This document shows positions 4,772-22,486 of a stretch of DNA of 22,486 nucleotides, piece after piece. The notes below the pieces were generated by a model, which worked only from the letters and a program-made list of their open reading frames with translations, was not told the origin of the DNA and made no database searches. The stretch lies in contig JBBCAW010000132.1 of NCBI GenBank assembly GCA_051382295.1, positions 1 through 22,486 of the forward strand, read 5' to 3'. The stretch's first letter is position 1, and the number at the start of each line of letters is the position of its first letter. Source of the DNA: Bdellovibrionota bacterium FG-1 (GTDB lineage Bacteria > Bdellovibrionota > UBA1018). A program made the position numbers and the translations under genes.

Positions 4772-4776
4772 GACTC

Positions 4777-5898: not shown

Positions 5899-8208
5899 TT
5901 TTTTAAGGATCGGGTGAGGGACGGAGTAGTGCAGCTGTAAATTCACTTTTCCTTGCGGGACAATCATCGCTTTGAAGGTAATATTCCCTCGAAGAATGGG
6001 TGTCGGTAATTCGTTAATCGTAGCACTCCAGCCTGGGAAATAGGTGTCTGTCACCATAAAAATACCGGGAGAACTGACGACCAGTTCGTAATCCAATGAA
6101 TCGGCCGTTCTAATTACTTTCTCTACTCGGCCCTGAGCGGGCTTAAGTACTTGCGGAGAACCGAGTCCATCTTGGGTAATGACTGCCAGCCCCTCGAGAT
6201 CTGAGAGGGGGACTTTTTTTAGAATTTCTAAGGCTTGAGCTTTTGATCCAGCTGTTTGTACCAACCGAGGAAAATAGCCAACCCCCCCCATTTCAGGGCA
6301 AATATAGCTCTTGATTTTGGTGTCTTCCGCCAGCAGTCGGCATTTAGACTCTTCGTAAGGACCCGGCAGCGTTGAAAAGACCACATCGTCGGGTGTAAAG
6401 GTAAAAAGCGAAATACGATTGAGAAGCAAGAGACGCTGAAAGTCGGACTCAAAAAGGGATTTTGTCGGAAGGTTTCTTACAAACCGATCCGGCTTAATCA
6501 TGTTGCCGGGGTCTGAATCCCACTTGTCCGTCAATCCTCCATTGAGTTCAAAATATCCTTGAGGGTAAATAGCATATAAAACGCGCATATCCAGAATATT
6601 AAAAGCTGCAGACCAATTTGGAAATAGGACCGTGCTTGGACTGTAATGTCTTCGGTCCTCAGAGATCGAAAGCTTTTGAACCGCACCCAGTGGACTAGTA
6701 GGGTCCAGTGCTTCATTGACCGCGGCGACTTCGCGTGCGGGACCATGAGCGAGAAGTTTGGGCAAAAAAACAGCCGAAAAGCTAATGGGCGGAAAAACTA
6801 AAAGACCGATTCCGGCAGCAATGAGTCCTGATTTGTATTTCGTAAATCGCCTAGCAAAGATTGCCAAAGCAAGGAGGGTTACTGAACCGCCCAAAAACGC
6901 GATCTTGATCGCCAAATTTTCTCGATAAAAAAGCGTCAGGAAAGTCAAAGCAGGGACGGTAAGCCAAAAAACAGGGGGCTTTTTTGAATTTTTGAGAGAG
7001 GTGATCGTGGTATGAATGCCGATGCCCGCCATGGAAAGAAAAAGAAATTGAGCATAGGGCAATAAATGCCGCACAAAACGGATGCCAGAGACGCCAGGAA
7101 CGTCGCAAATGGCGTCAGGCATTCCCCAGACAAGGAGGTAGCCAATAGCGGTTAAACTGAGAAGTGGAAAAAGTTGACGGTGGGCTAATGTAGTTATCGC
7201 AATTAAACCAAACCCTGCCAAACTTCCAAAAAGGAAGATGTTATTGGTTCCGATGGTAGGCTTTAGCAACGAGTTTAAAAATGAATCCCGCCCGATTGCT
7301 CCCACGGCAATACAGCCGGTTGCGTTCCGGCTCGAGAAAAAATGTCCGATATTCTCGACTACTGGAATCCATGCTGGCAGAGTGAACAAAAAGCCCAAGC
7401 CGGCAGCAATACCGACTAAAAGTGATCTACCGTGTGTCTGAGGTGCCGCCACCATCGCAAAAATTGCGACCATTAATAAAAACACAAACTGAGATTGAAG
7501 GAATCCGAGGAGGCCAATGAGGATACCTAGAATAAGGGCACTCGTTAGAGCAACCTTCAGTGAAATCTGTTTGCCTGTGATTGCGAGCAGAATCACGGCA
7601 ATCCACGGCCCAAGCATATCTCCATCAAGAAAGACAATGTCGATATAACTAGTATGATAGGGTGCAAGAGTTGCAGCCATTGCGGTAACTAGAGCAGCAG
7701 CTAGCCCCCCTCCCATCAGGAGAACACAAAGCGTAATTCCGGTGGTCCACAATAAGATACGTAAAAATATTAACCAGTCGCGTCCGCTTGAGCTTGGAAA
7801 AAGCCTCAAAAAGGCCCGAGTCGGCGAGTAACGGCTATAATGGCCATCCAGTGCAATGGGATAGCCTGAACCAATATAGGGGTTCCAGCTGGGTAAGGCG
7901 AATGCCCCTGTTGCGTTCTGGCTGAAAAAGTGGTCGGCCGGAAGCTCTTGCGCAGCCGGGGCTCCGGGGTCCACATATCCGATGGCTTTGAGGTTTTTGC
8001 GACATTCTAGCCGAGCCCCGGTAGCCTGACAGTCGGGGAAAACCGTAGCGTGGGTCGCACTTGATGAAAGCGTAAACTGAGGAAGGAGAAAGATACCCCA
8101 CGTCATGAGGGTGGCGCACAAAGCAATCAGTAGCGATCTGAACAAGATCCCGCCCGATAAAGCTCTTTGGAATAGTTTCTTAATGTTTGCAACTAAAGAT
8201 TCTAGCAT
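5881..8208 (-). CDS. YfhO-like (GT-C fold) multi-pass membrane glycosyltransferase
   Basis: 775 aa. N-terminal TM helix, YVDPGA (candidate catalytic Asp), LPSWNPYIGSGYP motif, many TM segments, C-terminal TDTYFPGWSATIN...ILRGNITFKAMIVPQG...LHY domain. Confidence 0.8.
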   Translation of the reverse strand: MLESLVANIKKLFQRALSGGILFRSLLIALCATLMTWGIFLLPQFTLSSSATHATVFPDCQATGARLECRKNLKAIGYVDPGAPAAQELPADHFFSQNATGAFALPSWNPYIGSGYPIALDGHYSRYSPTRAFLRLFPSSSGRDWLIFLRILLWTTGITLCVLLMGGGLAAALVTAMAATLAPYHTSYIDIVFLDGDMLGPWIAVILLAITGKQISLKVALTSALILGILIGLLGFLQSQFVFLLMVAIFAMVAAPQTHGRSLLVGIAAGLGFLFTLPAWIPVVENIGHFFSSRNATGCIAVGAIGRDSFLNSLLKPTIGTNNIFLFGSLAGFGLIAITTLAHRQLFPLLSLTAIGYLLVWGMPDAICDVPGVSGIRFVRHLLPYAQFLFLSMAGIGIHTTITSLKNSKKPPVFWLTVPALTFLTLFYRENLAIKIAFLGGSVTLLALAIFARRFTKYKSGLIAAGIGLLVFPPISFSAVFLPKLLAHGPAREVAAVNEALDPTSPLGAVQKLSISEDRRHYSPSTVLFPNWSAAFNILDMRVLYAIYPQGYFELNGGLTDKWDSDPGNMIKPDRFVRNLPTKSLFESDFQRLLLLNRISLFTFTPDDVVFSTLPGPYEESKCRLLAEDTKIKSYICPEMGGVGYFPRLVQTAGSKAQALEILKKVPLSDLEGLAVITQDGLGSPQVLKPAQGRVEKVIRTADSLDYELVVSSPGIFMVTDTYFPGWSATINELPTPILRGNITFKAMIVPQGKVNLQLHYSVPHPILKKLHLVN

Positions 8209-9062
8209 TTTTCAGTCAGCCCCTGGATGGTTTCTCGGATACCCTGCTCAAGCGATATTTCTGGGCGCCAGGAGGTCGAAGCCATTATTTTTTGGTTATC
8301 CCCCGTGAGTAGAGGCGGGTTGGCATCATTCGGCGGTCGGTGTTCTACGTGCAGAAGGTCCTCTTTGTCCATTGTTTTGGCAATGAGACGGGCAACATCT
8401 TCCAGCGAGACGCCCACTCCGGACGAAATATTGAAAGCGCCCTGAGCCGGGCTTTCCAATAAATGGGCAAATGCAGATCCAACATCAGCCACATGCAGGA
8501 AATCGCGGATCAGTGAGCCGTGGAGCACTGAGGCTTTCTGATTCGCTGCAAGTTTGAGCATGATTGATGGAAAAAGGCGGAGTGGGTTTTCGTTTGGTCC
8601 ATAAAGCAAAAAAACACGACCCCATGCGGCGCTCATTCCCATTTGTGCGGAGTAGGCCAGCAGGATTCGTCGCAAGGAGTCTTTGGCTGCCCCGTATAGG
8701 GTGAGAGGAGCACAAGGAGTGACATCCTCTTGGCAACGGCCTGCCTTTGCCCAGTCATACTCAGCACAGGTACCAGCCATGACCACACGTTTTCCGCCCG
8801 CTTCCGCAAATGCCTCGAGGAGATCAAGGCTGCACCGTACCCAGCGTAGATTTTCTGGGGTTGTCCAAAACTGACCGTGGGTGGTGTTCCAGGCGAGGTG
8901 AAGTAAATGAGAGGGGCGTACTTCATTGAGGACCTCCCGTAACTTGAGTGAGTCGAAGAGGTCAAACGTGTAAACATGGACATCGAAGCCCAGTTGTGAG
9001 AGCCGCTGAACCGCGTGTTGACCAATGAAGCCAGTCCCCCCGGTCACAAAAACGCGCTTCAT
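8202..9062 (-). CDS. NAD(P)-dependent epimerase/reductase (extended SDR), probable CDP-4-keto-6-deoxysugar 4-reductase
   Basis: VTGGTGFIG Rossmann motif, HLAW, GTCAEY, YGAAK (YxxxK); translationally coupled to the RmlC-like gene. The reductase role is inferred from context. Confidence 0.85.
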   Translation of the reverse strand: MKRVFVTGGTGFIGQHAVQRLSQLGFDVHVYTFDLFDSLKLREVLNEVRPSHLLHLAWNTTHGQFWTTPENLRWVRCSLDLLEAFAEAGGKRVVMAGTCAEYDWAKAGRCQEDVTPCAPLTLYGAAKDSLRRILLAYSAQMGMSAAWGRVFLLYGPNENPLRLFPSIMLKLAANQKASVLHGSLIRDFLHVADVGSAFAHLLESPAQGAFNISSGVGVSLEDVARLIAKTMDKEDLLHVEHRPPNDANPPLLTGDNQKIMASTSWRPEISLEQGIRETIQGLTEKC

Positions 9063-9589
9063 TTTAAATAATCCCCAAAAAGCAGGTCTTTTTCAGCGAT
9101 TTTCGATATCGGTAGCGGCCAACGAACATTAAAAGCCGGGTCGTTCCACCTAACACCGCTGGCGTGGGTAGGAGAGTAACGCTCCGACATCAGGTAAAGA
9201 ACATCCGAATTTTCTTCCAGAGTCTGAAAACCGTGAGCGAACCCCTTGGGAATATAAAGGCTACGACGGTTTCGAGAGGAGAGTTCGATCGAAAAGCTTT
9301 TGCGCCAAGTGGACGAGTCCGGGCGCAAGTCAACAATGACATCCATGATCGCCCCCTGGGAGCAATTCACCACCTTCGCCTCTTCCATAGGGGCCGTCTG
9401 AAAGTGCATTCCCCTGACAGTTCCGAGGCTTGGATTGCTAGAAACATTGCTTTGAACAATCGAAAAATGAATCTGGTGTTGTTCAAATTCATCGGTGCAA
9501 AAGCTTCTAAAAAAGGTGCCGCGTTCATCCGTGCGAAGTTCGGCGTCAATGACCCAGACTCCTTGAAGCGGTGCTGCGGTAAAAATCAT
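9059..9589 (-). CDS. RmlC-like NDP-4-keto-6-deoxyhexose 3(,5)-epimerase (cupin)
   Basis: DERG.F, GTVRGMHFQ, EAKVV, DVIVDLR, GFAHGFQTL, VRWNDP motifs. Start set at ATG 9589, which forms an ATGA overlap with the upstream stop. Confidence 0.92.
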   Translation of the reverse strand: MIFTAAPLQGVWVIDAELRTDERGTFFRSFCTDEFEQHQIHFSIVQSNVSSNPSLGTVRGMHFQTAPMEEAKVVNCSQGAIMDVIVDLRPDSSTWRKSFSIELSSRNRRSLYIPKGFAHGFQTLEENSDVLYLMSERYSPTHASGVRWNDPAFNVRWPLPISKIAEKDLLFGDYLK

Positions 9590-10812
9590 GAAAGGACCTC
9601 GACCTCCGGAATCGGGGTGACAAATTTTCCGCCCCACTCCTTGATCCAGCTCATCTGTTGCGTGATTTCAGTTTTCAAATTCCAGGGAAGGATAAGCACA
9701 TAGTCAGGGCGGGTGTCTCGGATTTTTTCAGGAGAAAAAATAGGAATGTGGGTTCCGGGTAAAAAACGGCCCTGTTTATAGGTACTCCGATCAACTGTGT
9801 AGTCGATCATGTCCGTTTTGACCCCGCAATAATTGAGCAGCGTATTGCCCTTGGCGGGCGCGCCATAACCCACGACTGTTTTTCCGTCATTCTTAGCATT
9901 GATCAAAAATTGGAGTAAGCTTCGTTTTGTCTTTTTAACTCTCTCACCGACGTGGCGGTAGGTTTCTAGTTGATCTAGCCGGAATTTTTTCTCTGCGGCA
10001 TGTATCTGAGCGACTGAATCATGGAGGGGGCGGTTTTCGTTTGAATGGGCGCCAAAGATCCGAATGGAGCCGCCATGAGTTGAAAGTTCATCCACTCGGT
10101 AAAGGGTAATTCCATGATGACGGAAGATTTTTTCGGCGGTCATAAATGAGAAATACGAAAAGTGCTCATGGTAAATTGTGTCAAACTGATTGTGTTGGAT
10201 GAGGCGCAGCAGATGGGGGAACTCCATGGTGATCGTTCCCTGTGGGGCCAAGAGGATTTTCATTCCGGCCACAAAATCATTTAAATCCGGCACGTGGGCC
10301 AACACGTTGTTGCCAAGTAATAAGTCCGCTGCTTTGCCCTCTGACTTCAGTCGCAGAGCCGTTTCCCGGCCAAAAAAGCTGACTTCGCTCGGGATTCCTT
10401 TTTCGATTGCGACCTTGGCTACGTTTGCGGCAGGTTCCACGCCAAGAACGTTCATCCCTTTCTTCTTGAAATATTGAAGCAGGTAACCGTCGTTGCTCGC
10501 AAGTTCGACAATCTTTGCGGTTGGACCGATGCCGTGTTGAGAAGTCATCTCGTCAGCGTAGTCGCTGGCATGTTTCAGCCAACTGTCTGAGTAGGATGAA
10601 AAGTAAGCGTATTCTGAAAAAATACTTTCCGGGGATTCAAAGCTTTCTAGCTGCACCAGAAAGCAATTTTCACAAACAAAAGCATGAAGCGGATAAAAGG
10701 GTTCCATCGCTTGGGTTTTCTCAGGTGGAAGGTAAGCATTCGCGATGGGTGACATCCCGAGATCAGCGAATGTAACACTCAGTTTTGCATGACAGAATCT
10801 GCATTGGGCCAT
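9586..10812 (-). CDS. NDP-hexose C-methyltransferase (TylC3/EryBIII/NovU-like family)
   Basis: CRFC...CENC zinc site, ELASNDG, NNVLAHV, FDTIYHEH, THGGS, YGAPAKGNT, ILPWN. Start set at ATG 10812, which follows an AAGGAAGGA ribosome-binding site. Confidence 0.93.
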   Translation of the reverse strand: MAQCRFCHAKLSVTFADLGMSPIANAYLPPEKTQAMEPFYPLHAFVCENCFLVQLESFESPESIFSEYAYFSSYSDSWLKHASDYADEMTSQHGIGPTAKIVELASNDGYLLQYFKKKGMNVLGVEPAANVAKVAIEKGIPSEVSFFGRETALRLKSEGKAADLLLGNNVLAHVPDLNDFVAGMKILLAPQGTITMEFPHLLRLIQHNQFDTIYHEHFSYFSFMTAEKIFRHHGITLYRVDELSTHGGSIRIFGAHSNENRPLHDSVAQIHAAEKKFRLDQLETYRHVGERVKKTKRSLLQFLINAKNDGKTVVGYGAPAKGNTLLNYCGVKTDMIDYTVDRSTYKQGRFLPGTHIPIFSPEKIRDTRPDYVLILPWNLKTEITQQMSWIKEWGGKFVTPIPEVEVLS

Positions 10813-10829
10813 TTTAGTGTTCCTTCCTT

Positions 10830-13800
10830 TTATTCCAGAATTCGAAAACACAACGAAAAATCAGGGGGATGGGTTTTGAGGGTGTCGTCGTTGTAGTAGG
10901 GGTCTTTTTGCACGAGATTACCCCAACGTTCCAAAAAGAGGTCAATTTCCGCATCCTTGACTTTGGCCTCGCGAGAAACGGACTCAAAATGATACATTTC
11001 TGCGTGAGGCGTGTAAACAATGCGCTTGCCTTGGCTTCGCACTTTTAAGCAATAATCGATGTCGTTATAGTTGATGCCAAAGTCCTCGCTGTAGCCGCCC
11101 ACGCTCCGAAATTGTGCAGTTGGCGTCAGCATGCAGGCTCCTGTGACGGCCGTCCAATTTCGGGTTCCTACCGTACTAAAAAAATACCCCGGCTCATCGC
11201 GGTGAAAGTGCTTTCGAACGTGATCAGGTAATCCTCGGCAAAAGGTGACTCCGGCGTGCTGGAGGGTGTCATTTTCGTAGAGGAGCTTAGCTCCCACCAC
11301 TCCGACCCCACCTTTCAAGCCCTGTTCGAGCATGGCCTGAATCCAATCCGGCGCGATAGGTTCAATGTCGTCGTTGAGAATCAGTAGAAATTCTCCCTGT
11401 GCATGTTGAGCGCCGAGGTTGATTTTTTTTGCGATGTTGAACTCAGGTTCCAAATAGGTCACCCAGTGAATGCGCGCAGATTTTGAAATGGCTTCGATTT
11501 TGTTTCTGCGATCTTTTGATAGGTCGCCGTTGTCCACGATGATAAATTCGAGGTTCTCGTAGGTCGATGTTTTCAGTACCTTTTCGACACAGTTTTGGAG
11601 GAGATCTACCTTTTGGCCTCGAACGGTTGCACTAAAGCCTCCCGTGGGCAAGATGATCGAAACGAGGGGTTGGGACGGTAGCTCCCATCGAAGGTCAAAG
11701 CAACCGGCATACCGACTCATTTTCGCAGTGCCCTTACGGCCAGTCCTGGCTAGGCGATCCTCAAGGCCCCGAATAGCGGCTTGAATCACATAGTTCTTTG
11801 CATCCATACTCGACGCGGTCGAACCGGGAATGGCCCGCCAATGATAAAGGATTTTAGGAATGTGTGCGATTTTGTCCGTTTTTTCAGTAAAGCGAAGGAC
11901 AAAGTCATAGTCTTGGGCGCCATCGTACCCCTGCCGAAAGCGACCCACTGAATCAGCGATGCCTTTGCGATAGCAAGCTAAATGGGCCGTAAACATGGCA
12001 GATTCAAGATACTCAGGGGACCAGTCTGGCTTGAAAAAAGGTTCATAGCGATAGCCGGCCAGATCTAGTTTATCCTCGTCGCTATAAATCATGTCGAGCG
12101 AGGGGTCCTCGTTGAGCTTTTTGGCGAATTCAAAAAGAGCATTGGGGGCAATCTCATCGTCATTGTCCATCAAGACGTAGTAATCGCCCTTGGCCAATTC
12201 CATTGCGGAGTTGGTCGCAGCCGAGATGTGCCCGTTTTTTTCGCGATAAACCACTTTGATTCGAGGATCTCGAGCCTTGAGGCTCTCCAATACCTTGCGA
12301 ACTTGGGGATCCGTAGATGCGTCGTCGGCAAAGCAAATCTCCCAGTGCGGGTAAACCTGATTGATCACCGATTCGGCCATCGCGCGAAGCCAGCGAGCCT
12401 TGACATTGTAAACGGGCACAACAATGGAGAATACTGGTTTATATGAAAGGTGAGTCAGGGTGGCTCGCATTTTCTCATACTGTTGAGGACCGTCCTCTGC
12501 AAAACTCAGGTAATCTTGATAGTACGCAAAAAGAGGATCCTTGGTCCGTGACGACCCTTTTAATTTGAGCTTGATTCGGTCTAAAGCTAAGCGGGCGCCA
12601 TCGCGTGACTGAAAGTCCTTAAAAAGGTGATTCAGTTTTTTTTGGGCTGGCTGACGAGGTGACAAAGATTCGACTTCGAAGGAGTGCAAGGTAAATTTGC
12701 CAGGACCATCGAGCGGGTCAAAGCGAAGATTTTTGCACGAAAATGGAAGAATAAAGCGACGTTGAAGCGGGGTACCCGTATTTGACATGAGTCCGAGGTC
12801 TAAAGTTTGTGACTCATGATAAGCCCCTCGTTTTGCGTAGTAGAGCTTCATGTGCCCATTGCCGGCTAGCACGGTTGCTGAAATCGAGACTTTGAGCGGC
12901 CCCGCTGGGAACGGACCTTTTAAGATAAATTGGGGATCAGTTCCTTCGGAGGTCCAGACTGTAAGGTCATCCTTGATCTCTTGGGTCAATTGCTGTTTTG
13001 GAATGACTTTCAATGGAAACCTCCCGGTAGACGATGGAAATTGAGACTGATTGGCGGCGAGGAATCGCGAGCCCAGTCTTTGTCGGATAGTTCTCCGGTC
13101 TCGAATGGCCATTTCGAGGTGGCGTTGTGTTTGCATAAATATGTGGTTCCTCTGGTCAAGTTCCTCGCTCCGCTCTTGTTCCTGTCGATAGGCGGTGGTC
13201 ATGGCCTTGCGGAAGAGATTCAAAAGAAGGTTATCCAGCGTGTCCTGATTGTTTCTCGAGCCAGGAATTGAAAACAAGCGAGAAATTTGGGTACGCACGA
13301 GATCAAGATGACTCGTGTTACGCGTCGCTACTATAAAGTGGCGATAAACAGGACCTGTGACATCTCCAAGAAAAACGGCTTGGTTATAGTGCCGGTCGAG
13401 TGACTGCAGTTCTGGGCCAAATTCGGGTTTGGCGATGACGAGCATCATGGCGCTCATCAGTCGATCCCAAACAGCCAGCGAACCATGCCCCAGTGTGAGG
13501 GTTGAAAGACTGTTGTTAGCAACGGCCTTCTCCGTCTTTGAGAGATCAGGTAAGCCGTTATTGAGGTGCTCGATTAACCAAGGATGATCTCGGTAGGCTA
13601 AGGACCGAAATAAGTCGTTGGCTTTTTTTTCAGAATTAGCAACGCCGTCCGTGTCAAAGGGGGCCGCTAGGATCAAGCCCTCCCGTGCCACTCGACTCAG
13701 TTGGTTGATAAAAACATCTCTTTTCAACGGATCAATATGCTCCAATACGTCCAGTGCGATCACAAAGTCAAAAGATCGATCCTCGAATGGTAACTGGGTG

Positions 13801-14033
13801 GCGTCCGCTTCAACGAACTGAGGATCGCCCCGGACCTCATCGGACAGGTTCCGGTCCGAATACATGATCTGATCTAGAGGAAGAAACTTCTCAAGATTTC
13901 TTTGAAAATTGGCCCCAATTTCGAGGAGCGTGAAGGTTTGCCCTTGAATCCTGAGGGAATTCAGAATTTGAGCTGCAAAAGCGTAGCGCTGATACTGATC
14001 GAAATGGATGTCCAGATTAGGTTCGAAGGGCAT
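10830..14033 (-). CDS. Multidomain protein: class I SAM methyltransferase + helical linker + beta-rich module + two GT2 domains (WsaE-like architecture)
   Basis: 1067 aa. N-terminal LLEIGA and DATQLPFEDRSFDFVIALDVLEH; charged helical stretch YRQEQERSEELDQRN; WTSEGTDPQF...LRFDP module; GT2 motifs SIVVPVYN/DDAS/DNDD/YSDED and SIILPT/VDNG/LNDD/QHAG/YNDIDYCL. Confidence 0.9.
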   Translation of the reverse strand: MPFEPNLDIHFDQYQRYAFAAQILNSLRIQGQTFTLLEIGANFQRNLEKFLPLDQIMYSDRNLSDEVRGDPQFVEADATQLPFEDRSFDFVIALDVLEHIDPLKRDVFINQLSRVAREGLILAAPFDTDGVANSEKKANDLFRSLAYRDHPWLIEHLNNGLPDLSKTEKAVANNSLSTLTLGHGSLAVWDRLMSAMMLVIAKPEFGPELQSLDRHYNQAVFLGDVTGPVYRHFIVATRNTSHLDLVRTQISRLFSIPGSRNNQDTLDNLLLNLFRKAMTTAYRQEQERSEELDQRNHIFMQTQRHLEMAIRDRRTIRQRLGSRFLAANQSQFPSSTGRFPLKVIPKQQLTQEIKDDLTVWTSEGTDPQFILKGPFPAGPLKVSISATVLAGNGHMKLYYAKRGAYHESQTLDLGLMSNTGTPLQRRFILPFSCKNLRFDPLDGPGKFTLHSFEVESLSPRQPAQKKLNHLFKDFQSRDGARLALDRIKLKLKGSSRTKDPLFAYYQDYLSFAEDGPQQYEKMRATLTHLSYKPVFSIVVPVYNVKARWLRAMAESVINQVYPHWEICFADDASTDPQVRKVLESLKARDPRIKVVYREKNGHISAATNSAMELAKGDYYVLMDNDDEIAPNALFEFAKKLNEDPSLDMIYSDEDKLDLAGYRYEPFFKPDWSPEYLESAMFTAHLACYRKGIADSVGRFRQGYDGAQDYDFVLRFTEKTDKIAHIPKILYHWRAIPGSTASSMDAKNYVIQAAIRGLEDRLARTGRKGTAKMSRYAGCFDLRWELPSQPLVSIILPTGGFSATVRGQKVDLLQNCVEKVLKTSTYENLEFIIVDNGDLSKDRRNKIEAISKSARIHWVTYLEPEFNIAKKINLGAQHAQGEFLLILNDDIEPIAPDWIQAMLEQGLKGGVGVVGAKLLYENDTLQHAGVTFCRGLPDHVRKHFHRDEPGYFFSTVGTRNWTAVTGACMLTPTAQFRSVGGYSEDFGINYNDIDYCLKVRSQGKRIVYTPHAEMYHFESVSREAKVKDAEIDLFLERWGNLVQKDPYYNDDTLKTHPPDFSLCFRILE

Positions 14034-14757
14034 TGTTTTGCAATCTCATCCCGACTGCCAAGTTGATATTCGGAAAGGGAACTCGCAGTGGAAAAAAATG
14101 TCGCTGAACTGGAAATAGGTGTTGGGTTAGTTCGTGTAAAACCTCCCCGTAGCTATTGACGTGTTCATTTAGATGGATGGGCGTGAAGTCCATATTGAAG
14201 TTCGACACAAAAAGGCGTTCCGCAGAAATCTTGCGTGCTAAAGTATGAGCCAGCCCGCCTTCGCAAGGAATGACGATATCCAAAACCCCGTTGGGTTTGA
14301 GCAGACGGTGGATTTCTTGAATTGCATTGGGAAGGTCTCTCAGGTGTTCGAGCACATGAATAGCTACGATGCGATCGAAATAACCGTCATCCCAACATTG
14401 GCGCTGGTGAATGTCGCCACAGTGAACTCGGGTAGGTGGAAGGATTTTTCTGATTTCTTTACAAAATTCTTCACGATATTCAAGGCAATGGTATTCTTGC
14501 GCATCGAGGTTTTCATACCGGCAGTGCTCGCCGATGCCTGCTCCAATTTCAAGAGTTTTCCAGTTGGGTTTTATCGGCAAAGAGGCAGGAAAGCCGTGAT
14601 TGAATTTTTCGATGACCCCATATTTTTTTGGCAACTCTTGATGCCATAAGAGCATGTATTTTTCTCTGGCGTCCAGTTGCTCGTTTGAGAGGGAGGGAGG
14701 ATTTTTTGGCCATATCCCTCTGGGAAGTGGGTCTCGGTATTTGAAAAATTCGATCAT
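14017..14757 (-). CDS. Class I SAM-dependent methyltransferase
   Basis: 246 aa; LEIGAGIG motif I, FDRIVAIHVLEHL, LLKPNG; ATGA overlap with the upstream GT-C gene. Confidence 0.88.
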   Translation of the reverse strand: MIEFFKYRDPLPRGIWPKNPPSLSNEQLDAREKYMLLWHQELPKKYGVIEKFNHGFPASLPIKPNWKTLEIGAGIGEHCRYENLDAQEYHCLEYREEFCKEIRKILPPTRVHCGDIHQRQCWDDGYFDRIVAIHVLEHLRDLPNAIQEIHRLLKPNGVLDIVIPCEGGLAHTLARKISAERLFVSNFNMDFTPIHLNEHVNSYGEVLHELTQHLFPVQRHFFPLRVPFPNINLAVGMRLQNNALRT

Positions 14758-17090
14758 ACTTCAGCTCGTTTTGGAAAAATGATTCTGAAAAGCAGATAAA
14801 GTGCCCCGAAGAGGGCTAAAGCGCAAAGGGCTAAGCTTGGCATGAGCCAATATGGTTTATATCTGAACTCAATTTGATAATCCCGCGGTTCAGGAAGAAA
14901 GACCGCCCGAAACGTCAAATTTGCCGGGGATATAGGTAGTTCACTATGACTGGAAATGTCAAATGCAGTCCAGCCGGGGTAGAAATTATCGTTCAGCATG
15001 AGAATCGTTGGTCCGCGAATTGTGTTTAGAGCCACTACGCTTCCCTGATCGCGTAGGATTTCGATCGGGGTAACTTTCGCTGTTTTGTAAGATTTGCAGA
15101 ATTCTCTCAAAATCAAAGAGTCGGTTTCGATATAGGCAGTACCAAGGTCAGTACCCTTTGCCTCGATAGAGTACTGTTTAGTTTCCTTAATATCGCCCAC
15201 CACAAGACATTTTTCCGGGAGATAGGCGCGAGATAGGGCAGTCGGATCAAAATAGAGGCTTTGATTGTCCCCAAAACGTGCCACCAGGCGCGTACCGTTG
15301 TCAGCAATCTTGGGTTCTGTGGACGAGTCAATCAAGAGACCTACGGAAGCTCTCTTCCAATTAAAGGGGGTGAGTGCGCGTTTATAGGGCATATACCCCC
15401 CCCATTCCGACTCAAAAAAAAGGGTTCGGAAGGTTTGAATTCTGGAGGGGAGAATGGCTACGGCATCTAGATCTGGGGTTGCAAGCCCCGCTGACAGGTG
15501 GCGGAGCTCTATTCCGAATGGATCATAAATTCGATAGTTAACGGAGTTGAGACCATAGCTCTTAATTGCATCAACGGTTGCCAACATTCTAGGGTCCGGC
15601 CGGAGCGTTGGAGTAAATACACTCATTTTTTCAAATAAGTTGGGCCGTACTGCCATGAATTGAAATATTGCGCACACAACCAGAATGTGACCGATGTAAC
15701 GGGAAATAAATCGAGACGGAGGAAGAAAAGCGCGGAGAACTGAAAGTAAGAAAGCCGCCAAAAAAACAAAGGCAATAAAAAACATTGGCCGGTCTCTAGA
15801 GGCCAAAGTAAAGTATGAGGCTCCAAAGAGAGTTTTAGCGGAGGAGGATGCCAAGAAGATCACTGTAAAAAAGGCTAAGGATATTCCCAGTAAGTACTGA
15901 GTTCGTTTTTGAGATATTCGAATATACTCAAGCCCTTTGGCGGCAATTGCGGCAAAGGGGAATAAAAGAAGCGGGATAAAATAAACAGTGAACCAGCATT
16001 GGGTAAAGATGGGGAGTGAACCAAGCCAGGTATTAAAAGCCGGAAAGATCGGAAAGACCTTGAGACAAAAAAAGAGTCCGCAAAAAATGCTAAAAATGTA
16101 GGGTCGCGTAAGTGTTTTGATCGAAAGAGCGAAGGCCCAAATTCCAAGGAAAAACAGAAAAAGAGGAATCAGGCCAAAAATTTGAATATTTTGAGCCTTA
16201 GGAAAAGAGTCCTCAAGACGGGTGATCATGGGCATGAAGTAACTCAAAAAGCCGGGGAATTGTGTCAGCCCTATGCCAATTCGAAAACCAGGTTTCGTTT
16301 GTCGAATAAATTCAACGAGCGCAAAAAGCTGGGGCGAGGCAGCAAAAAAAGCCAATAAATGTGCAATGAATAAATCAGTAACAAGAAAACGGGCTTCACG
16401 TAGGTTCGAGAAGGCTCTTTTTGCCAAAAGCGGCCCTGCAAATAGGATGGCAAAAAGGGTAAACAAGATAGAGGATTCGGGAAATCCACACGTGACCAGG
16501 CTATAAGCCGTAAAGGCTACTGCAAGGATTCGCAGTTTGCGAGATTTAGGGTCTGATGGTGAAGTTGCGTGAAGCGTTAGGCAGTAGATGTACCAGGTTC
16601 CTGCAGCCAAACCGCTCGAATAGGCATGGTTTATCCAGCGGATGTTGTAGAGTGCAAAGGCAAAGCAAAGGGTAAAGAGCGCTGCTGCCGTTTTGTGAAA
16701 ACCAAAGACTCGACTTCCGATGAGGAAGGTCGCGCACCCGGTTAGGATCAGACGAGTGAGCGCAAAGACATTCCAGAAAATTCCACTAGGTAACCAGGAA
16801 AGCAACAGCGTAAGGGGAAAAAGGGGGCCAGATTGAAATTCGTTACCGAGGAGTGGCATTCCCATTCCACGTAAGCTTGACCAAAGTAAGGAGTGGTTGG
16901 AGAATAGGGCCTGTTTAATCGTTTCAAAACCAGGAATAAAAACCAAAGGGCTGGTTACCGGATCCTGAAGCTCCCAGGTTTTAGGCAACATGGCAGACCA
17001 CTTCATAAGACAGAGCTCAGGATAAACCAGGAATACTACGGCAGCAGAGAATGCGAATGCTGTAAAGAATGGTTTTTTGGCAAAAATCAT
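14754..17090 (-). CDS. YfhO-like (GT-C fold) multi-pass membrane glycosyltransferase
   Basis: 778 aa. N-terminal TM helix, LQDP (candidate catalytic Asp), LLWS...GMGMPLLGN..Q...FP motif, many TM segments, C-terminal NDNFYPGWTA...ANLTFRAV...IEFRYKP plus a last TM helix. Confidence 0.8.
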   Translation of the reverse strand: MIFAKKPFFTAFAFSAAVVFLVYPELCLMKWSAMLPKTWELQDPVTSPLVFIPGFETIKQALFSNHSLLWSSLRGMGMPLLGNEFQSGPLFPLTLLLSWLPSGIFWNVFALTRLILTGCATFLIGSRVFGFHKTAAALFTLCFAFALYNIRWINHAYSSGLAAGTWYIYCLTLHATSPSDPKSRKLRILAVAFTAYSLVTCGFPESSILFTLFAILFAGPLLAKRAFSNLREARFLVTDLFIAHLLAFFAASPQLFALVEFIRQTKPGFRIGIGLTQFPGFLSYFMPMITRLEDSFPKAQNIQIFGLIPLFLFFLGIWAFALSIKTLTRPYIFSIFCGLFFCLKVFPIFPAFNTWLGSLPIFTQCWFTVYFIPLLLFPFAAIAAKGLEYIRISQKRTQYLLGISLAFFTVIFLASSSAKTLFGASYFTLASRDRPMFFIAFVFLAAFLLSVLRAFLPPSRFISRYIGHILVVCAIFQFMAVRPNLFEKMSVFTPTLRPDPRMLATVDAIKSYGLNSVNYRIYDPFGIELRHLSAGLATPDLDAVAILPSRIQTFRTLFFESEWGGYMPYKRALTPFNWKRASVGLLIDSSTEPKIADNGTRLVARFGDNQSLYFDPTALSRAYLPEKCLVVGDIKETKQYSIEAKGTDLGTAYIETDSLILREFCKSYKTAKVTPIEILRDQGSVVALNTIRGPTILMLNDNFYPGWTAFDISSHSELPISPANLTFRAVFLPEPRDYQIEFRYKPYWLMPSLALCALALFGALYLLFRIIFPKRAEV

Positions 17091-18082
17091 GATTTTCGTG
17101 CATCCGTCTGCTTATACGCATCGCCCACAATCGTAACTGCCCTGAGCGCGTCTTCGGCTTTTGCGAGATCAGTGTGTTTTCCTTCGATTTCAGCCAGAAA
17201 TGCATCCCACTCGAGAAGCCATGAGCGGTCCTCACCCGGGAAGGTAAACACCTCGGTATCAGGGGGGCCCATTTCTGGCTTCATTTTGTAGTAGCGAAGT
17301 TCCTCGGTTCCGTAGCTTCGACCGAGGCCCCAGATCTGGAGTTTTCCAGTTTGGCCGAAGATTTCGAAATCAAAGAGATTTTTCCACTCAGTGCAGCTTG
17401 CGTGAATATGGCAGTATTGCTTTTTACCGGGGGCTTTCAATAGCAAAAATCCATTATCTTCGACCGGCATGTCCCAAAAAAACGTCTCGACACGGCCATA
17501 CTCGAGTTCAAATTCGCCTCCGAGCCAACGGCAAAGGTCAATGAGATGAACACCCTGGTCTAGAAGTTCCCCGCCCCCTGAAATCTCCCGAACCGCGCGC
17601 CATTCTTTATCGTAACCGATTCGACCGCCATGTCCATATCGTGCGCGGATGTACATGAGGGGCCCAATCCCTCCCGATTGCATGATCTCTTTGGCCTTTT
17701 GAAAGCCAGGGTGAAAGCGGTGATTGAAACCTACTCGCAAAATACGATCTGAACGATGGGTCGCCTCAACAAGTCCTTGAAGGTCCTCGGTGTGTCGGCC
17801 TGCTGGTTTCTCGACTAAAGCGTGCTTTCCGCTTTCGAGGGCGGCCTTCGCGCAAACCGGAATCACGGCGTTGGTCGTAGCGATAATGACCGCATCGATA
17901 TCCTTGCGGGCCATGAGCTCCTGCCAGGAGTCGTAAGCCGTTGCACCGTAGGCGTCGGCCAGCGTTTTTGCTCGATCCATAGCGATATCTGCGACCGCGA
18001 CTAGCTTGGCGCCCGGCATGGATGCCGCGCGTTTGCCACCAATCAGTCCTGCTCCTACAATTCCTACGCGTAATGAGGTCAT
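17087..18082 (-). CDS. Gfo/Idh/MocA-family oxidoreductase (LmbZ-like by context)
   Basis: GIVGAGLIG, LVEKP, GFNHRF, GGGELLDQGVH, VEDN motifs. Confidence 0.92.
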   Translation of the reverse strand: MTSLRVGIVGAGLIGGKRAASMPGAKLVAVADIAMDRAKTLADAYGATAYDSWQELMARKDIDAVIIATTNAVIPVCAKAALESGKHALVEKPAGRHTEDLQGLVEATHRSDRILRVGFNHRFHPGFQKAKEIMQSGGIGPLMYIRARYGHGGRIGYDKEWRAVREISGGGELLDQGVHLIDLCRWLGGEFELEYGRVETFFWDMPVEDNGFLLLKAPGKKQYCHIHASCTEWKNLFDFEIFGQTGKLQIWGLGRSYGTEELRYYKMKPEMGPPDTEVFTFPGEDRSWLLEWDAFLAEIEGKHTDLAKAEDALRAVTIVGDAYKQTDARKS

Positions 18083-18951
18083 TTTGAACTCCTGCTAAAC
18101 AAGTCGTTGTCAATGCGACGCAGTCTGAGTAAGTCCGCATTTTCAGTAATAGTCTTCGGATTTTCGAGGATCTTTTTATCCCACTTTGCGCTGATGAGGC
18201 GTCCCGATACGCCATCCAAGCGAGGGTCCAAAAGTGCCGCCGTCATTTGAGCTGCAAAATCGGGTGAATCGCCCCCACTTTGCTGAACTTTAACCGTGGC
18301 AGCGTAAAGAGCGCCTAAGGCTTTTTCGCCAGCTTGGGCTGCTTGTTCAGTGATTCCCGTTTTTACCGCACCTGGAGCTAGACAGTTAATGTCGATTCCA
18401 GTGGCGTAAACCTCTTCGTGCACGATTTCAACAAGGCGGTAGAGCGCCGCCTTTGCACAACCGTAGGCTGAGATTCCGGGCCAAACCTGGGAACCCCCAA
18501 GGCCGCTGCCACTCATGACCAAGATCTTGCGGCGGAATTGAGAGGGCTCTCCCTTGCCTGCGATCTGGATATAGTGTTGGAGCATTTCGGCGACCGCAAA
18601 GAAATTGAGATCAAAGGATTTTTTCCAGCCTGTAAAATCCACTTCTGAGAGTTTGCCGAGGGTTCCGTAATCACCTGCATTGCAGATCAATGCCTGTGGA
18701 AGGTCCTCGGACGACTTCCAACGTGAAAAAAGCTCAGCCACCCCGCAGGGCTTGCTCAAATCTGCTGGAATGATTTCGACCTGGGTTCCGTGGGTCTTAC
18801 GGAGTTTGTCGGCCAATGAGTTTAACGCCGCAAGATCTCGGCCACAGAGCACTAAATTCCATTTTTCAGTGGCCAATTTTTCGGAGATGGCCTTGCCGAT
18901 TCCTTTAGCGCCGCCGGTAACGATGGCGGTTTTTAATCCGGAGGGTTTCAT
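18079..18951 (-). CDS. Classical short-chain dehydrogenase/reductase (SDR)
   Basis: VTGGAKGIG (TGxxxGIG), CNAG, SAYGCAK (YxxxK), APGAVKT. Confidence 0.92.
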   Translation of the reverse strand: MKPSGLKTAIVTGGAKGIGKAISEKLATEKWNLVLCGRDLAALNSLADKLRKTHGTQVEIIPADLSKPCGVAELFSRWKSSEDLPQALICNAGDYGTLGKLSEVDFTGWKKSFDLNFFAVAEMLQHYIQIAGKGEPSQFRRKILVMSGSGLGGSQVWPGISAYGCAKAALYRLVEIVHEEVYATGIDINCLAPGAVKTGITEQAAQAGEKALGALYAATVKVQQSGGDSPDFAAQMTAALLDPRLDGVSGRLISAKWDKKILENPKTITENADLLRLRRIDNDLFSRSSK

Positions 18952-18962
18952 AAGCTTTTCCT

Positions 18963-19943
18963 TTAGTTTTGAACCATGACCTTGGAGCCTTCATGTTCAA
19001 AGGCAAAACGCACCTCAACTAGGCCCTCGGCTGCCATCGCTTTGCGGAGAGCGGTACGGTCCTTGGCGTAAAACAGAATAAAGCCGCCACCGCCGGCCCC
19101 GATGAGTTTACCCCCTACCGCACCGTTTGCGTATCCGATATCGTACCATCGGTTGATGTTTTCATTGCTGATGCCGGTTGAGCGGGCCTTTTTGTGCAGC
19201 CAATGCTCGTGCATGAAGCGGCCAAATTGATGAGTATCCCCGGTTTCGAGCGACTTTTTAATGGGGTTTGCGAGTTCTTTGATGAAGTGTAGGTTTTCGA
19301 TCATCGCTTTGTCGTTCGTTTCGCTTCGAGTCTTTTGATCGGCGAGAACCGCGCTTGCGCTCCTGGAATATCCCGTAAAGAACATCAGCAAGTTGTCTTC
19401 GAGGTCGTGAAGGGTGTCGGTTGATATCCGAAGAGGTGATACCTGGACTTTTCCGTCCTTATCGAACTCCATGCAGATGAGACCACCGTAGGCGGCGATG
19501 TATTGATCTTGCTTGCCAACCGGTTCTTTGAGGAGGTCGATTTCAATTTTGCAAGCTTCTTCGGCCAGCGCGTTAGTCGTGACATGCTCGCGTTTTAGAC
19601 TATAAATTCCCCGTAAAAGGCCTACATTGAACGCACCCGAGGATCCGAGACCGGTCCCGGCGGGGATGTCCGCCATACTGACCACTTCAGAATAGTTTTC
19701 GACGTTGTGCAGTTTGAAGGTTTCTCGAACGATCGGGTGTTTGATTTCATCGATACTTTCGACCGTTTCCATTGTCGAGTACTTGATGATGTAGTTCGGG
19801 ACAAATGTTTTGTGGACCGCAATATAGATGTAGCGAGTGATCGCTGCTGAAATGACAAACCCGCCAAATTTCTCATAATACGAAGGGAGGTCAGTGCCTC
19901 CGCCGGCGATACTGATTCGAAGGGGGGTGCGTGTAATAATCAT
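18963..19943 (-). CDS. GHMP-family sugar kinase, HddA/LmbP-like (heptose/octose-phosphate anomeric kinase)
   Basis: TPLRISIAGGGTD, IPAGTGLGSSG, GKQDQY, GGKLIGAGGGG. Start set at ATG 19943 (ATGA overlap with the upstream stop). Confidence 0.92.
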   Translation of the reverse strand: MIITRTPLRISIAGGGTDLPSYYEKFGGFVISAAITRYIYIAVHKTFVPNYIIKYSTMETVESIDEIKHPIVRETFKLHNVENYSEVVSMADIPAGTGLGSSGAFNVGLLRGIYSLKREHVTTNALAEEACKIEIDLLKEPVGKQDQYIAAYGGLICMEFDKDGKVQVSPLRISTDTLHDLEDNLLMFFTGYSRSASAVLADQKTRSETNDKAMIENLHFIKELANPIKKSLETGDTHQFGRFMHEHWLHKKARSTGISNENINRWYDIGYANGAVGGKLIGAGGGGFILFYAKDRTALRKAMAAEGLVEVRFAFEHEGSKVMVQN

Positions 19944-20881
19944 AAATGGTCCCTCAAGTATTGAGTAGTGATTCGAACACATTCTTTAATGGTTTTGGTG
20001 GGTCGCCAACCGGTTGCTCGGATCTTGGAGCAGTCGAGAAAGATAAAGGGATTATCTCCCACCCAGCCGCGATCCCCGCCGCTGTATTCGCGTTTGGGGT
20101 TGATTTTAAGTTCATCGAAGATCACGTCGATCGACTCGTTGACTTCGACATACTCATCGGTGCCAAGATTGTAAATTTCGACTTTATTGGGGGATTCAGT
20201 CCGGATTGCCGTGAGAATCGCATTCACGCAATCTCCGACGTAGAGATAGGATTTTCGTTGTTTGCCATTTCCCAGGACGTAAAGCCGGCTTGGGTCTTTG
20301 CGGAGGTTCATGACAAAGTCATAAACATGTCCGTGCGTGTAACGTTCTCCCATGATGGAGACGAAACGAAAGATGTAGGCTTTGATGCCGTAGCCTTCGG
20401 CATAAGCCGACAACAGGCCTTCGCCTGCGAGTTTGGATGCTCCATAGAGCGAAGTCTGGATGGGGAAAGGGCAAGTTTCAGGTGTGGGAATGACTGCGGC
20501 CTCTCCGTAGACGCTTCCGGTTGAAGAAAACGCGATTTTCTTGACCCCGGCTTTTCGGACCGCTTCGAGCACGTTCCAGGTGACAAGGGTGTTTTGTTCC
20601 ACGTCTTTCCACGGGTGCTTCAGGCCATCTCGGACGTCTGCATTGGCCGCCAAATGAAAGACAATATGAGTTTCGGCCCCTAAGAGTCCATCCAGAGCTT
20701 CACGATCGGTGAGGTCCTTTTGGACAAGTTTAAAGCGAGGGGATTTGAGCGCGTCTTTTAAAAAGGCTTCCCGTCCTGTGGAAAAATTGTCGACGCCGAT
20801 AACCTCCCATCCGTCGGATAGGAGGCGGTCTACAAGGTTGCTGCCAATAAATCCGGCCGCGCCGGTTACGAGAGCTTTCAT
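19940..20881 (-). CDS. NAD-dependent nucleotide-sugar epimerase (extended SDR, GalE/LmbM-like)
   Basis: VTGAAGFIGS, HLAANADVR, SSTGSVYG, YGASK. Start set at ATG 20881, just after AGAGGA. Confidence 0.92.
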   Translation of the reverse strand: MKALVTGAAGFIGSNLVDRLLSDGWEVIGVDNFSTGREAFLKDALKSPRFKLVQKDLTDREALDGLLGAETHIVFHLAANADVRDGLKHPWKDVEQNTLVTWNVLEAVRKAGVKKIAFSSTGSVYGEAAVIPTPETCPFPIQTSLYGASKLAGEGLLSAYAEGYGIKAYIFRFVSIMGERYTHGHVYDFVMNLRKDPSRLYVLGNGKQRKSYLYVGDCVNAILTAIRTESPNKVEIYNLGTDEYVEVNESIDVIFDELKINPKREYSGGDRGWVGDNPFIFLDCSKIRATGWRPTKTIKECVRITTQYLRDHL

Positions 20882-20932
20882 GATTCCTCTAAACGTGTTG
20901 TTTACTTTGAGAGGATTTGTTACCAGAAGGTT

Positions 20933-22249
20933 ATGCAAACGTCAAAAAGGCATTACGCTATTGCGGTAATTGGTGATTGGCATCTCGCTTTTTGCACAGC
21001 TGCTTGTATTGCAAGCACCGGCCAAAAAACTCTGTTTGTGAATCCCCTTCTCGGTGAAGCTCAGCGTTGGAGCGGATTTCCGGAGCTTAAGCTGGCTGAA
21101 CCTGGCTTGCCCGAAATGATCCAGAATGCAAAGAATCTCGGAAATCTCGATTACGCGAACGGATTTGAGGAGGATTGGTCGGCCGACGTGGTTTGGCTTG
21201 CGATTGACACGCCGGTCAACGATCGGGATGAGCCAGACACTACGCCGCTTCTTGATGTTGCCAAAAAACTGAAAGCAAAAGGTGTGCAGTTTGAGATTTT
21301 CGCGATCAATAGCCAAATTCCCCTGGGGTTTTCGACACTTTTGGAAAAGTCTTTTGGTTTTAAGGTTGCCTATGTGCCCGAAAACCTTCGGTTAGGTAAA
21401 GGCATTGAAACTTTTCTCAGGGCAGATCGCACGGTTATTGGCGCCTCATCACCTGACACGGCTGAGCAATTAAAAACTAAACTAGCTAAATTTCAGACTG
21501 AGTTTTTGCTTTGTGATTTGCCCACGGCCGAAATGGTTAAACACGGAACCAATGTTTTTCTCGCCATGTCGATCAGCTTTTCCAATGAGTTGGCGAGGAT
21601 TGGTGAGCTGATGGGTGTCGATAATCAGTTAGTGGGAAAAGCACTGAAGTTGGATTCACGAATTGGAAAACAGGCCTACGTGATGCCGGGGCTTGGGTTT
21701 GCTGGTGGCACGCTGCCCCGGGACCTTCGGATTGTTCAAAAGTTGGGACGCGAGCATACGGTTCCTACTCCATTAGTGGATGCAGTACTCACCGTGAACG
21801 AATCCACCGCCCAGGCTTTGACTCAGTCGGTGCGGGAGTATTGGGGTGGGTTGAGTGGCAAGAAGATTTTGGTGATTGGCTATGCCTATAAGGCAGAGAT
21901 CGATACGCTTCGTCGTTCGCTTTCAGTTGATATTGCCCGTGAACTGAATCAGGCGGGTGCCGTAGTGATCGGCTACGATCCGGCGATGAATCACCGCGAT
22001 CTTTCGTCTCTGAAGCCGGTTTTACGGCACGTTGCGGATTGGAGGGAAATTGAGGCTCCCGACGCGGTTTTGGTGATGACTCCGCGCCCGATGTTTCGAG
22101 AACTCGATTGGAAAGCTTTAGGGGCTAAAGTTTCACAATCGGAAAGAAAACCACTGGTTTTGGATGCCGTGAATGTAATCGAAGGTGGACAGATTCTTGC
22201 CGCCGGGTTGGTGTATAAGCGACTTTGGCAACCGATTCAAACGACTTAG
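20933..22249 (+). CDS. UDP-glucose/GDP-mannose dehydrogenase-family protein lacking the catalytic Cys (LmbL-like by context)
   Basis: 438 aa; IDTP, PENLRLG, AEMVKH..N.FLA..ISFSNE, DSRIG, GFAGGTLPRD (canonical GGxCxPKD), GYAYK, YDP motifs. Confidence 0.88.
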   Translation: MQTSKRHYAIAVIGDWHLAFCTAACIASTGQKTLFVNPLLGEAQRWSGFPELKLAEPGLPEMIQNAKNLGNLDYANGFEEDWSADVVWLAIDTPVNDRDEPDTTPLLDVAKKLKAKGVQFEIFAINSQIPLGFSTLLEKSFGFKVAYVPENLRLGKGIETFLRADRTVIGASSPDTAEQLKTKLAKFQTEFLLCDLPTAEMVKHGTNVFLAMSISFSNELARIGELMGVDNQLVGKALKLDSRIGKQAYVMPGLGFAGGTLPRDLRIVQKLGREHTVPTPLVDAVLTVNESTAQALTQSVREYWGGLSGKKILVIGYAYKAEIDTLRRSLSVDIARELNQAGAVVIGYDPAMNHRDLSSLKPVLRHVADWREIEAPDAVLVMTPRPMFRELDWKALGAKVSQSERKPLVLDAVNVIEGGQILAAGLVYKRLWQPIQTT

Positions 22250-22368
22250 TCAGTCGCCTTGATTCGCGAACCATCAGTCTGAGGCATATCCTCAATTTTG
22301 CTAAAACGAAACAGCACAATCGCGCGAATCCAGGTGAGCGGGTCGAGAAGGATCCGAACTTTTCCTGC
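22246..22368 (-). CDS. C-terminal 40-aa remnant of a probable DPM-synthase-like (polyprenol-phosphate) GT2 glycosyltransferase
   Basis: Manual translation: AGKVRILLDPLTWIRAIVLFRFSKIEDMPQTDGSRIKATD*. This resembles the '(E)GKK(V/I)...D.+..+..+++.R' tail of DPM1-like GT2s. Its TAA (22246-22248) overlaps the TAG of the dehydrogenase-like gene. An in-frame TAA at 22369-22371 closes the frame upstream. Not in the supplied ORF track. Confidence 0.55.
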   Translation of the reverse strand, partial: AGKVRILLDPLTWIRAIVLFRFSKIEDMPQTDGSRIKATD

Positions 22369-22486
22369 TTATCCGGTTGTCACTTAATTGATGTTTTTGA
22401 AGATTTCGCGCTGCGCGCAACGCTGTAGACTTCTCGATAGGTTAATCCAGGCCGGAGAGTTCCAAGTCCCAGTAAAGTTCGAAATG

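Follow-up and report, generated by a model that had tools for sequence, protein, structure and literature searches.

Five sugar-nucleotide genes at the edge of a glycan locus

The window analyzed here is the entire 22,486-base contig JBBCAW010000132.1 of Bdellovibrionota bacterium FG-1 (assembly GCA_051382295.1; 4.44 Mb in 158 contigs, completeness 97.7%), and our subject is a cassette of five sugar-nucleotide genes that it carries at positions 17087–22249. Pfam assigns these five intact open reading frames (ORFs) to a Gfo/Idh/MocA oxidoreductase, a short-chain dehydrogenase/reductase (SDR), a GHMP kinase, an NAD-dependent epimerase, and a homologue of UDP-glucose dehydrogenase (UGDH), the five adjacent families named in an original prediction made from the sequence alone (Table 1).

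Table 1. Positions of the cassette genes and of adjoining features in the window
Feature	Position	Strand	Basis or remark
1067-aa methyltransferase and double GT2 glycosyltransferase	10830..14033	-	PF00535 twice, PF08241
Class I S-adenosylmethionine methyltransferase, possible glycan O-methylation	14017..14757	-	PF08241; relatives in 4/80 related loci
778-aa multi-pass membrane protein, YfhO-like, candidate GT-C transferase	14754..17090	-	No Pfam match
Gfo/Idh/MocA oxidoreductase, CcbZ/LmbZ type	17087..18082	-	PF01408/PF22725; 331 aa
Classical SDR, predicted NADPH ketoreductase in the slot of aminotransferase CcbS/LmbS	18079..18951	-	PF00106
GHMP anomeric sugar-phosphate kinase, HddA-family relative, clade of the cassette's own	18963..19943	-	PF00288/PF08544
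NAD-dependent epimerase, CcbM/LmbM type	19940..20881	-	PF01370
Cys-to-Thr UGDH homologue, CcbL/LmbL type, 438 aa	20933..22249	+	Three UDPG/GDP-mannose dehydrogenase Pfam domains
Altered nucleotide-binding loop GDWHLA (residues 14–19) replacing GxGYVG	20972..20989	+	Dehydrogenase alignment
Thr260 codon, catalytic-cysteine position	21710..21712	+	Alignment to 3VTF and 4A7P
Multi-copy repeat at contig break, ~100 bases past the dehydrogenase	22352..22486		Repeat matches

The four minus-strand genes are coupled by ATGA overlaps, except for an 11-base gap between kinase and SDR. The kinase ATG at 19943 overlaps the stop codon of the epimerase, which itself starts at an ATG at 20881 with a Shine-Dalgarno sequence (the ORF list gives a longer TTG start at 20938). 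The unit does not end with the oxidoreductase, whose stop codon is overlapped by the start of the membrane-protein gene, but extends into that 778-aa protein, the methyltransferase, and the double GT2 protein. The dehydrogenase gene is transcribed divergently, with 51 bases separating it from the start of the epimerase, an orientation that is the reverse of that found in most homologous loci. A promoter scan of 20500–22486 was uninformative, returning zero sigma-70-like sites (1.5 expected) and three terminator-like sites (2.9 expected). The repeat that closes the contig recurs in 10 other contigs as 98–100% matches of 123–132 bases, which lie at or close to their ends.

As for the 778-aa protein, it has about nine hydrophobic segments and an Atlas score of 0.99, and the YfhO family PF09586, shown on 38% of the members of one cluster, provides a lead to its identity; its C terminus resembles that of the protein encoded at 5881–8208. 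More generally, three multi-pass membrane proteins of the contig, at 186–2057 (+), 5881–8208 (-), and 14754–17090 (-), weakly share a C-terminal domain, and only the first gives a YfhO match, which is below the cut-off. Relatives of the 5881–8208 protein flank the cassette in loci L012 and L019.

Kinship with the celesticetin sugar enzymes

We compared the cassette with the celesticetin (Ccb) proteins, used in place of those of lincomycin (Lmb), whose own cluster is absent from the 401 Streptomyces-like genomes sampled; Lmb and Ccb pairs are 59–74% identical according to a table in PMC4351081. A kinase search of these genomes gave 14 matches, and two genomes carry a celesticetin-type cluster. 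The ccb cluster was taken from genome G402 (locus L150), and its CcbD and CcbZ carrier domain are identical to the chains of PDB 7YN1/9DKR. The best matches in the FG-1 genome to CcbL, CcbM, CcbZ, and CcbP are, in a one-way test, the genes of this contig (179, 225, 192, and 147 bits), the next-best matches scoring 145, 80, 74, and none. Identities are 33% between the dehydrogenase and CcbL, 41% between the epimerase and CcbM, 35–37% between the oxidoreductase and CcbZ, and 32% between the kinase and CcbP. Four of the 401 genomes (G309, G378, G574, and G407; loci L250–L253) display the lmb gene order K L M N Z P O S R, and the L250 cluster, which is 34–56% identical to Ccb and includes a GT1-family glycosyltransferase and a PF10706 nucleotidyltransferase, possibly makes an uncharacterized lincosamide-like product.

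The dehydrogenase homologue shares the fold of UGDHs, which are the top matches (template modeling scores 0.84–0.87) of its AlphaFold model (predicted local distance difference test score 93). It exceeds the TIGR03026 subfamily cut-off (215 vs 190) and retains the active-site residues Lys203, Asn207, and Asp264. However, two hallmarks of UGDHs, the catalytic cysteine and the GxGxxG NAD loop, are replaced by Thr260 and GDWHLA, the segment around the former reading GFAGGTLPRD rather than the GFGGSCFPKD of solved UGDHs. The threonine is present in all 120 close homologues among the matches listed and in at least 139 of 149 distant representatives, while the loop residues G14, W16, and H17 recur in 115 of the 120, the remaining five being gapped. 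The Gly-to-Trp change in the loop, a Gly-to-Asp change before TP, and the loss of an acidic residue after strand 2 in the subclade of this dehydrogenase suggest a weakened NAD site. CcbL exhibits the same remodeled set (GLWHLG, SQVP, PENLRLG, KHATN, and FSGSTLQRD), having in common with the cassette enzyme GxWH, SQ, PENLRLG, KHxxN, and the replacement of Cys by Thr, and retains 55 of the 65 columns conserved in the dehydrogenase family. When the motif columns were removed, a tree of 38 rows still split 11 Cys enzymes from 27 Cys-less ones, the window's protein and CcbL among them, with a support of 100/99.

The FG-1 genome also encodes an ordinary, Cys-bearing UGDH on contig C12. Since the 14 best dehydrogenase matches among 40 relatives are all Cys-bearing, the Thr type has a patchy distribution within the lineage; its named homologues come from Oligoflexia/Bdellovibrionota and Polyangiaceae. 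Fusions of SDR and dehydrogenase occur, in both orders, in 5 of the 149 representatives, and one GT2–dehydrogenase fusion was found. Phage records gave no match above 34% identity, motifs not being inspected. Sister variants of the dehydrogenase have Asn or His at the catalytic-Cys position (loci L229 and L230; L063, L074, and L089).

Two further proteins join their Ccb counterparts. The epimerase and CcbM form one clade (100/99), apart from GalE- and RmlB-like rows, in a tree that omits three long rows and half of the cassette rows and in which the tested group was chosen once an earlier tree had been seen; the same clade also takes in epimerases from loci without the dehydrogenase. The oxidoreductase falls in a clade with CcbZ that has a support of 99 in the SH-like approximate likelihood ratio test (SH-aLRT), with only four to five outgroup rows, and at 331 aa versus 427 aa it does not have the carrier-protein tail of CcbZ. 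Three of the five proteins are related, then, to CcbL, CcbM, and CcbZ, and the kinship with lincosamide enzymes that the original prediction had proposed holds, for these Ccb counterparts, in the trees, where the proteins stand apart from ordinary UGDH, GalE, and RmlB.

The cassette and its partners in related loci

A scan of GTDB genomes returned 193 relatives. Our counts cover the best 80 of the 193 loci, many of them cut short, and genomes G132 and G045 were excluded from all counts and trees; the profiles were built from the same 80 loci, so their scores are not independent. Going by record titles, which can be wrong, the relatives come from over a dozen phyla of bacteria and from five groups of archaea. 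One locus labeled Streptomyces griseus (L014), from a genome of 3.2 Mb, has a cassette gene order and motifs like those of Bdellovibrionota loci, and its label is probably wrong.

Beside the dehydrogenase, the 80 loci contain the SDR (64), the oxidoreductase (60), the epimerase (54), and the kinase (54), and because the same families recur in 54–64 of the 80, the five-gene grouping is not due to chance. The loci also contain four upstream genes, namely a transaldolase (47, or 52 at a looser bound), a nucleotidyltransferase (48), a SIS isomerase (47), and a HAD phosphatase (46). All nine genes are found together in 23 of the 80 loci, and per-gene counts are 28–34 among the 39 loci of at least 19.5 kb. 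Complete sets lie on plasmid 3 of Lawsonia intracellularis, beside a GT2 gene, an ABC permease, and rfbC, and on a replicon of Rhizobium sp. CB3060, where the nine genes adjoin one another (L091). The upstream enzymes resemble Ccb proteins as well: the SIS isomerases of the relatives group with CcbN, not GmhA (98), CcbK sits among six cassette phosphatases (97/92), and CcbO is on the side of 14 of the 18 sampled cassette nucleotidyltransferases, plus three other rows (100/99).

The transaldolase bears on the length of the carbon chain. Heptose pathways rely on central metabolism for their sedoheptulose 7-phosphate. Of the 47 cassette loci with a kinase and at least 11 kb, 43 include a transaldolase in the fetched stretch, as opposed to 1 of 36 control loci with an HddA-like kinase, which are mostly actinobacterial and not independent, and the single control locus that has one carries cassette-type partners. 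The slot is filled by two distant subfamilies, TIGR02134 and a TalC-like type to which CcbR belongs (19 of 52 being nearer CcbR), which argues for need rather than hitch-hiking. Since LmbR is, according to PMC4351081, the confirmed transaldolase of the octose route, this linkage favors a C8 chain as substrate, although the chain may be longer. The cassette isomerases score 62–90 on the GmhA model (cut-off 209), like CcbN (86), whereas heptose isomerases score 199–212. The cassette nucleotidyltransferases reach 81–92 on the HddC model, whose cut-off is 300, and score best, though below cut-off, on MurU and guanylyltransferase models, so the nucleotide is uncertain. The original prediction had also allowed a heptose product; on chemical grounds, a heptose has no C8 and could not undergo 6,8-type chemistry.

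As for the final step, the reductase accompanies the cassette, as the predicted exchange of aminotransferase for SDR implied: while the SDR is found in 64 of the 80 loci, a DegT aminotransferase like CcbS occurs in 8, two of them at 41–42% identity and both alongside an SDR. In 10 of the 15 loci without an SDR, the gene immediately following the oxidoreductase encodes an extended SDR. Pfam finds no aminotransferase in the contig, and the best match to CcbS in the genome is an unlinked, partial one of 29%. The SDR of FG-1 falls in the cassette SDR clade (SH-aLRT 99) and retains a TGxxxGxG loop, Arg38, and Tyr163/Lys167, a pattern typical of NADPH reductases; residues T12, G13, G17, G19, R38, Y163, and K167 are invariant in 30 of 30 aligned sequences.

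The neighborhood is one of glycan genes, both on this contig and in the relatives, which bears out the envelope-glycan setting that had been predicted. In a scan of 31 hand-picked loci (up to four proteins per locus, 120 in all after five of 125 selected were dropped, counted by reading), 25 loci have at least one glycosyltransferase-family member within the four closest genes, and two more have a Wzx-type flippase there. The 120 proteins are otherwise mostly products of glycan genes, with one AMP-binding enzyme, and a DegT aminotransferase is found in 0 of the 31 loci.

Elsewhere on the contig, genes at 3995–5898 (+) and 8202–10851 (-) encode a CDP-glucose synthase and a 4,6-dehydratase (both over NCBIfam cut-offs), a C-methyltransferase, a 3,5-epimerase, and a reductase, likely a separate pathway to a CDP-branched 6-deoxyhexose. 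The nucleotidyltransferase at 3995–4771 was considered as a partner of the cassette and rejected, being a CDP-glucose synthase over its cut-off and outside the cassette clade. The contig start (1–143) is also a repeat, common to three other contig ends, and the small contigs C90, C104, and C126 resemble, as judged by eye, parts of insertion sequences.

A possible route to a surface octose and its alternatives

According to PMC12945683, LmbM, LmbL, CcbZ, and CcbS convert GDP-octose to GDP-lincosamide. In PMC4351081, LmbR, N, K, and O have confirmed roles, whereas those of L, M, Z, P, and S were predictions when it appeared. By analogy, we propose, as a reading with an even chance of being right, that the five genes form the tailoring half of a route to a nucleotide-activated neutral 8-deoxy-octose for a surface glycan. 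The transaldolase would yield octulose 8-phosphate, which the isomerase, kinase, phosphatase, and nucleotidyltransferase would convert into a nucleoside diphosphate (NDP) octose, probably with GDP. The epimerase would then reset C6 and/or C4, the oxidoreductase would oxidize C6, and the Cys-less dehydrogenase would help remove the C8 hydroxyl to give a 6-keto-8-deoxy sugar. Where CcbS would add an amine, the SDR would reduce the 6-ketone to yield a neutral NDP-8-deoxy-octose, and the GT2 and YfhO-like transferases may attach this sugar to the glycan. For the isomerase, phosphatase, and nucleotidyltransferase steps, FG-1 would have to rely on genes missing from the assembly or on its ordinary heptose enzymes. 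The scheme follows the steps of 6-epimerization, 6,8-dehydration, 4-epimerization, and transamination reportedly described by Wang et al. in PNAS in 2020, and lincosamide, made by the enzyme set to which CcbL belongs, is an 8-deoxy sugar.

A number of observations count against this proposal. Identities to the Ccb proteins are just 32–41%, and the contig's dehydrogenase belongs to a long-branched subclade that is not the sister of CcbL. The kinase, which the original prediction had likened by family to LmbP, is not an orthologue of CcbP/LmbP in our trees: CcbP does not fall among the cassette kinases, and their union in one clade is rejected by the approximately unbiased test (p = 0.0002; 28 rows, LG+G4, biased composition). 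CcbM-type epimerases also adjoin kinases without a transaldolase (L178 and L235), and the division of labor assumed between CcbL and CcbZ is one that Wang et al. (2020) reportedly described. Partner genes present a further difficulty. The prediction that a transaldolase, isomerase, phosphatase, and nucleotidyltransferase would be found holds for the relatives, where they adjoin the cassette in 46–52 of the 80 loci. In the FG-1 assembly, no cassette-type isomerase, nucleotidyltransferase, or phosphatase was found (best scores 95, 111, and 160 bits vs about 300, 300, and 220). The genome's sole transaldolase, on contig C54, is of a housekeeping type and unlinked to the locus. Although 62% identical to a cassette copy, it was rejected as an LmbR-like partner, because 24 of 41 genomes have a member of its subfamily above the cut-off whereas a cassette-grade kinase is found in 6 of 41, and because it groups with unlinked copies of the family. 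Finally, two relatives (G013 and G018; loci L220 and L224) carry the SDR, oxidoreductase, kinase, and epimerase without a Thr-type dehydrogenase.

This last arrangement is what one would expect of the least unlikely alternative, in which an NDP-octose for a surface glycan loses no oxygen, the oxidoreductase and SDR together invert a carbon, and the Cys-less dehydrogenase performs some other or optional step. Three further genomes (G020, G037, and G038; loci L221, L223, and L222) have the five upstream genes but, within the fetched stretch, lack all three tailoring genes, and on chemical grounds a UGDH fold acting on the secondary C6 alcohol would stop at the ketone and need no cysteine. As relatives lack the dehydrogenase or possess the upstream half alone, tailoring is variable, and these five loci may make unmodified or solely epimerized octoses. 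On the other hand, CcbL, which has the same remodeled residues, belongs to a set that makes lincosamide (PMC12945683), and the changes in the cassette enzyme suggest a weakened NAD site. We consider this explanation unlikely.

A second alternative, which we rate as rather improbable, is that an NDP-heptose is tailored, FG-1 using its ordinary GmhA and GmhB and obtaining a heptose stereoisomer by oxidation and reduction at C6. The genome does have a genuine GmhA, which at 212 bits exceeds the TIGR00441 cut-off, and an epimerase–HAD phosphatase fusion on contig C12 (L255:2500-4143), its only GmhB-like match, and the nearest solved structures to the kinase, which does not group with CcbP, are heptose kinases (4USM, 3K85, and 4N3O). 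Nevertheless, the kinase scores 171 bits on the HddA model (cut-off 600), compared with 421 for a heptose-cluster kinase, and both the association with transaldolase and the grouping of cassette isomerases with CcbN, far from the GmhA scores of heptose isomerases, speak against a heptose.

It is less probable still that FG-1 carries only half of a pathway, left stranded beside a mobile repeat by rearrangement, for which the supply of substrate has been lost. In its favor are the three missing partners, equally missing from the genome of locus L024, the inverted dehydrogenase, and the multi-copy repeats at both contig ends. Against it, the five proteins show no decay, stops, or frameshifts, their junction overlaps are intact, and conserved columns are kept (61/65, 62/63, 51/51, and 67/71 for four proteins, and 42/51 for the SDR, whose subclade is common to two Polyangiaceae). 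Moreover, three of four other genomes with partial loci have the absent nucleotidyltransferase and isomerase on other contigs; splitting is thus usual, and in FG-1 an assembly gap and a loss are both possible. That the sugar ends up in a lincosamide-like small molecule for secretion is very improbable, for although the only characterized relatives are antibiotic enzymes (PMC4351081), the 16 contig proteins, to which this search was confined, include no condensation, carrier, or resistance protein, the oxidoreductase is without the carrier tail, and the neighbors in the 31 loci are those of glycan synthesis.

How, then, does the proposed octose route compare with known systems? Eight of the nine enzyme families of the lincosamide octose module (CcbR/N/P/K/O/M/L/Z/S, equivalent to LmbR/N/P/K/O/M/L/Z/S) are found in the related loci. 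CcbL, M, Z, N, K, and O fall with cassette proteins, CcbR falls with one of the two cassette transaldolase types, and the Cys-to-Thr signature is common to CcbL and the cassette dehydrogenase. In contrast to the lincosamide module, the cassette has an SDR for the aminotransferase, a kinase from another clade, and no carrier domain; its context is one of glycosyltransferases, its carriers span many bacterial phyla and archaea, and FG-1 has five of the nine genes at the locus. The cassette would thus operate in the manner of the lincosamide octose module without belonging to a lincosamide cluster. The pathway to GDP-D-glycero-alpha-D-manno-heptose (GmhA, HddA, GmhB, and HddC), which feeds surface glycans, follows the same logic of isomerase, kinase, phosphatase, and nucleotidyltransferase, but cassette proteins are far under the HddA, GmhA, and HddC model cut-offs, and the control kinase loci are without a Thr-type dehydrogenase and, in 35 of 36 cases, without a transaldolase. 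UGDH differs from the cassette enzyme by its cysteine, its NAD loop, and its separate clade. The C4-branched octoses of Gram-negative polysaccharides and of paulomycin are, according to PMC4753412, C8 surface sugars finished by a ketoreductase, as we propose for the cassette; they are hexoses with a hydroxyethyl branch, whereas the cassette route would give an unbranched, transaldolase-derived chain. In the literature, most subscription journals not being covered, we found no description of the cassette or of an unbranched octose in a surface glycan.

More broadly, we suggest tentatively, at somewhat less than an even chance, that many bacteria and archaea, among them patescibacteria, Rhizobium, and Lawsonia intracellularis, obtain surface sugars by a nine-enzyme route whose product is an unbranched 8-deoxy-octose, and that lincosamides took their sugar core from this route, exchanging the reductase for an aminotransferase. 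If so, a large family annotated as UDP-glucose dehydrogenase is misnamed and marks a surface-sugar route for which we found no report. Because six Ccb sugar enzymes fall with proteins of glycan loci in the trees, the route would offer an origin for the sugar core of lincomycin and celesticetin, the direction of transfer not being established by these trees, which have no tested root. It would also provide soluble enzymes for making octose nucleotides from the cultured and harmless carriers Rhizobium sp. CB3060 and R. jaguaris. Finally, since the complete set in Lawsonia intracellularis lies on a plasmid beside polysaccharide export genes, the sugar may be part of a surface antigen of this pig pathogen.

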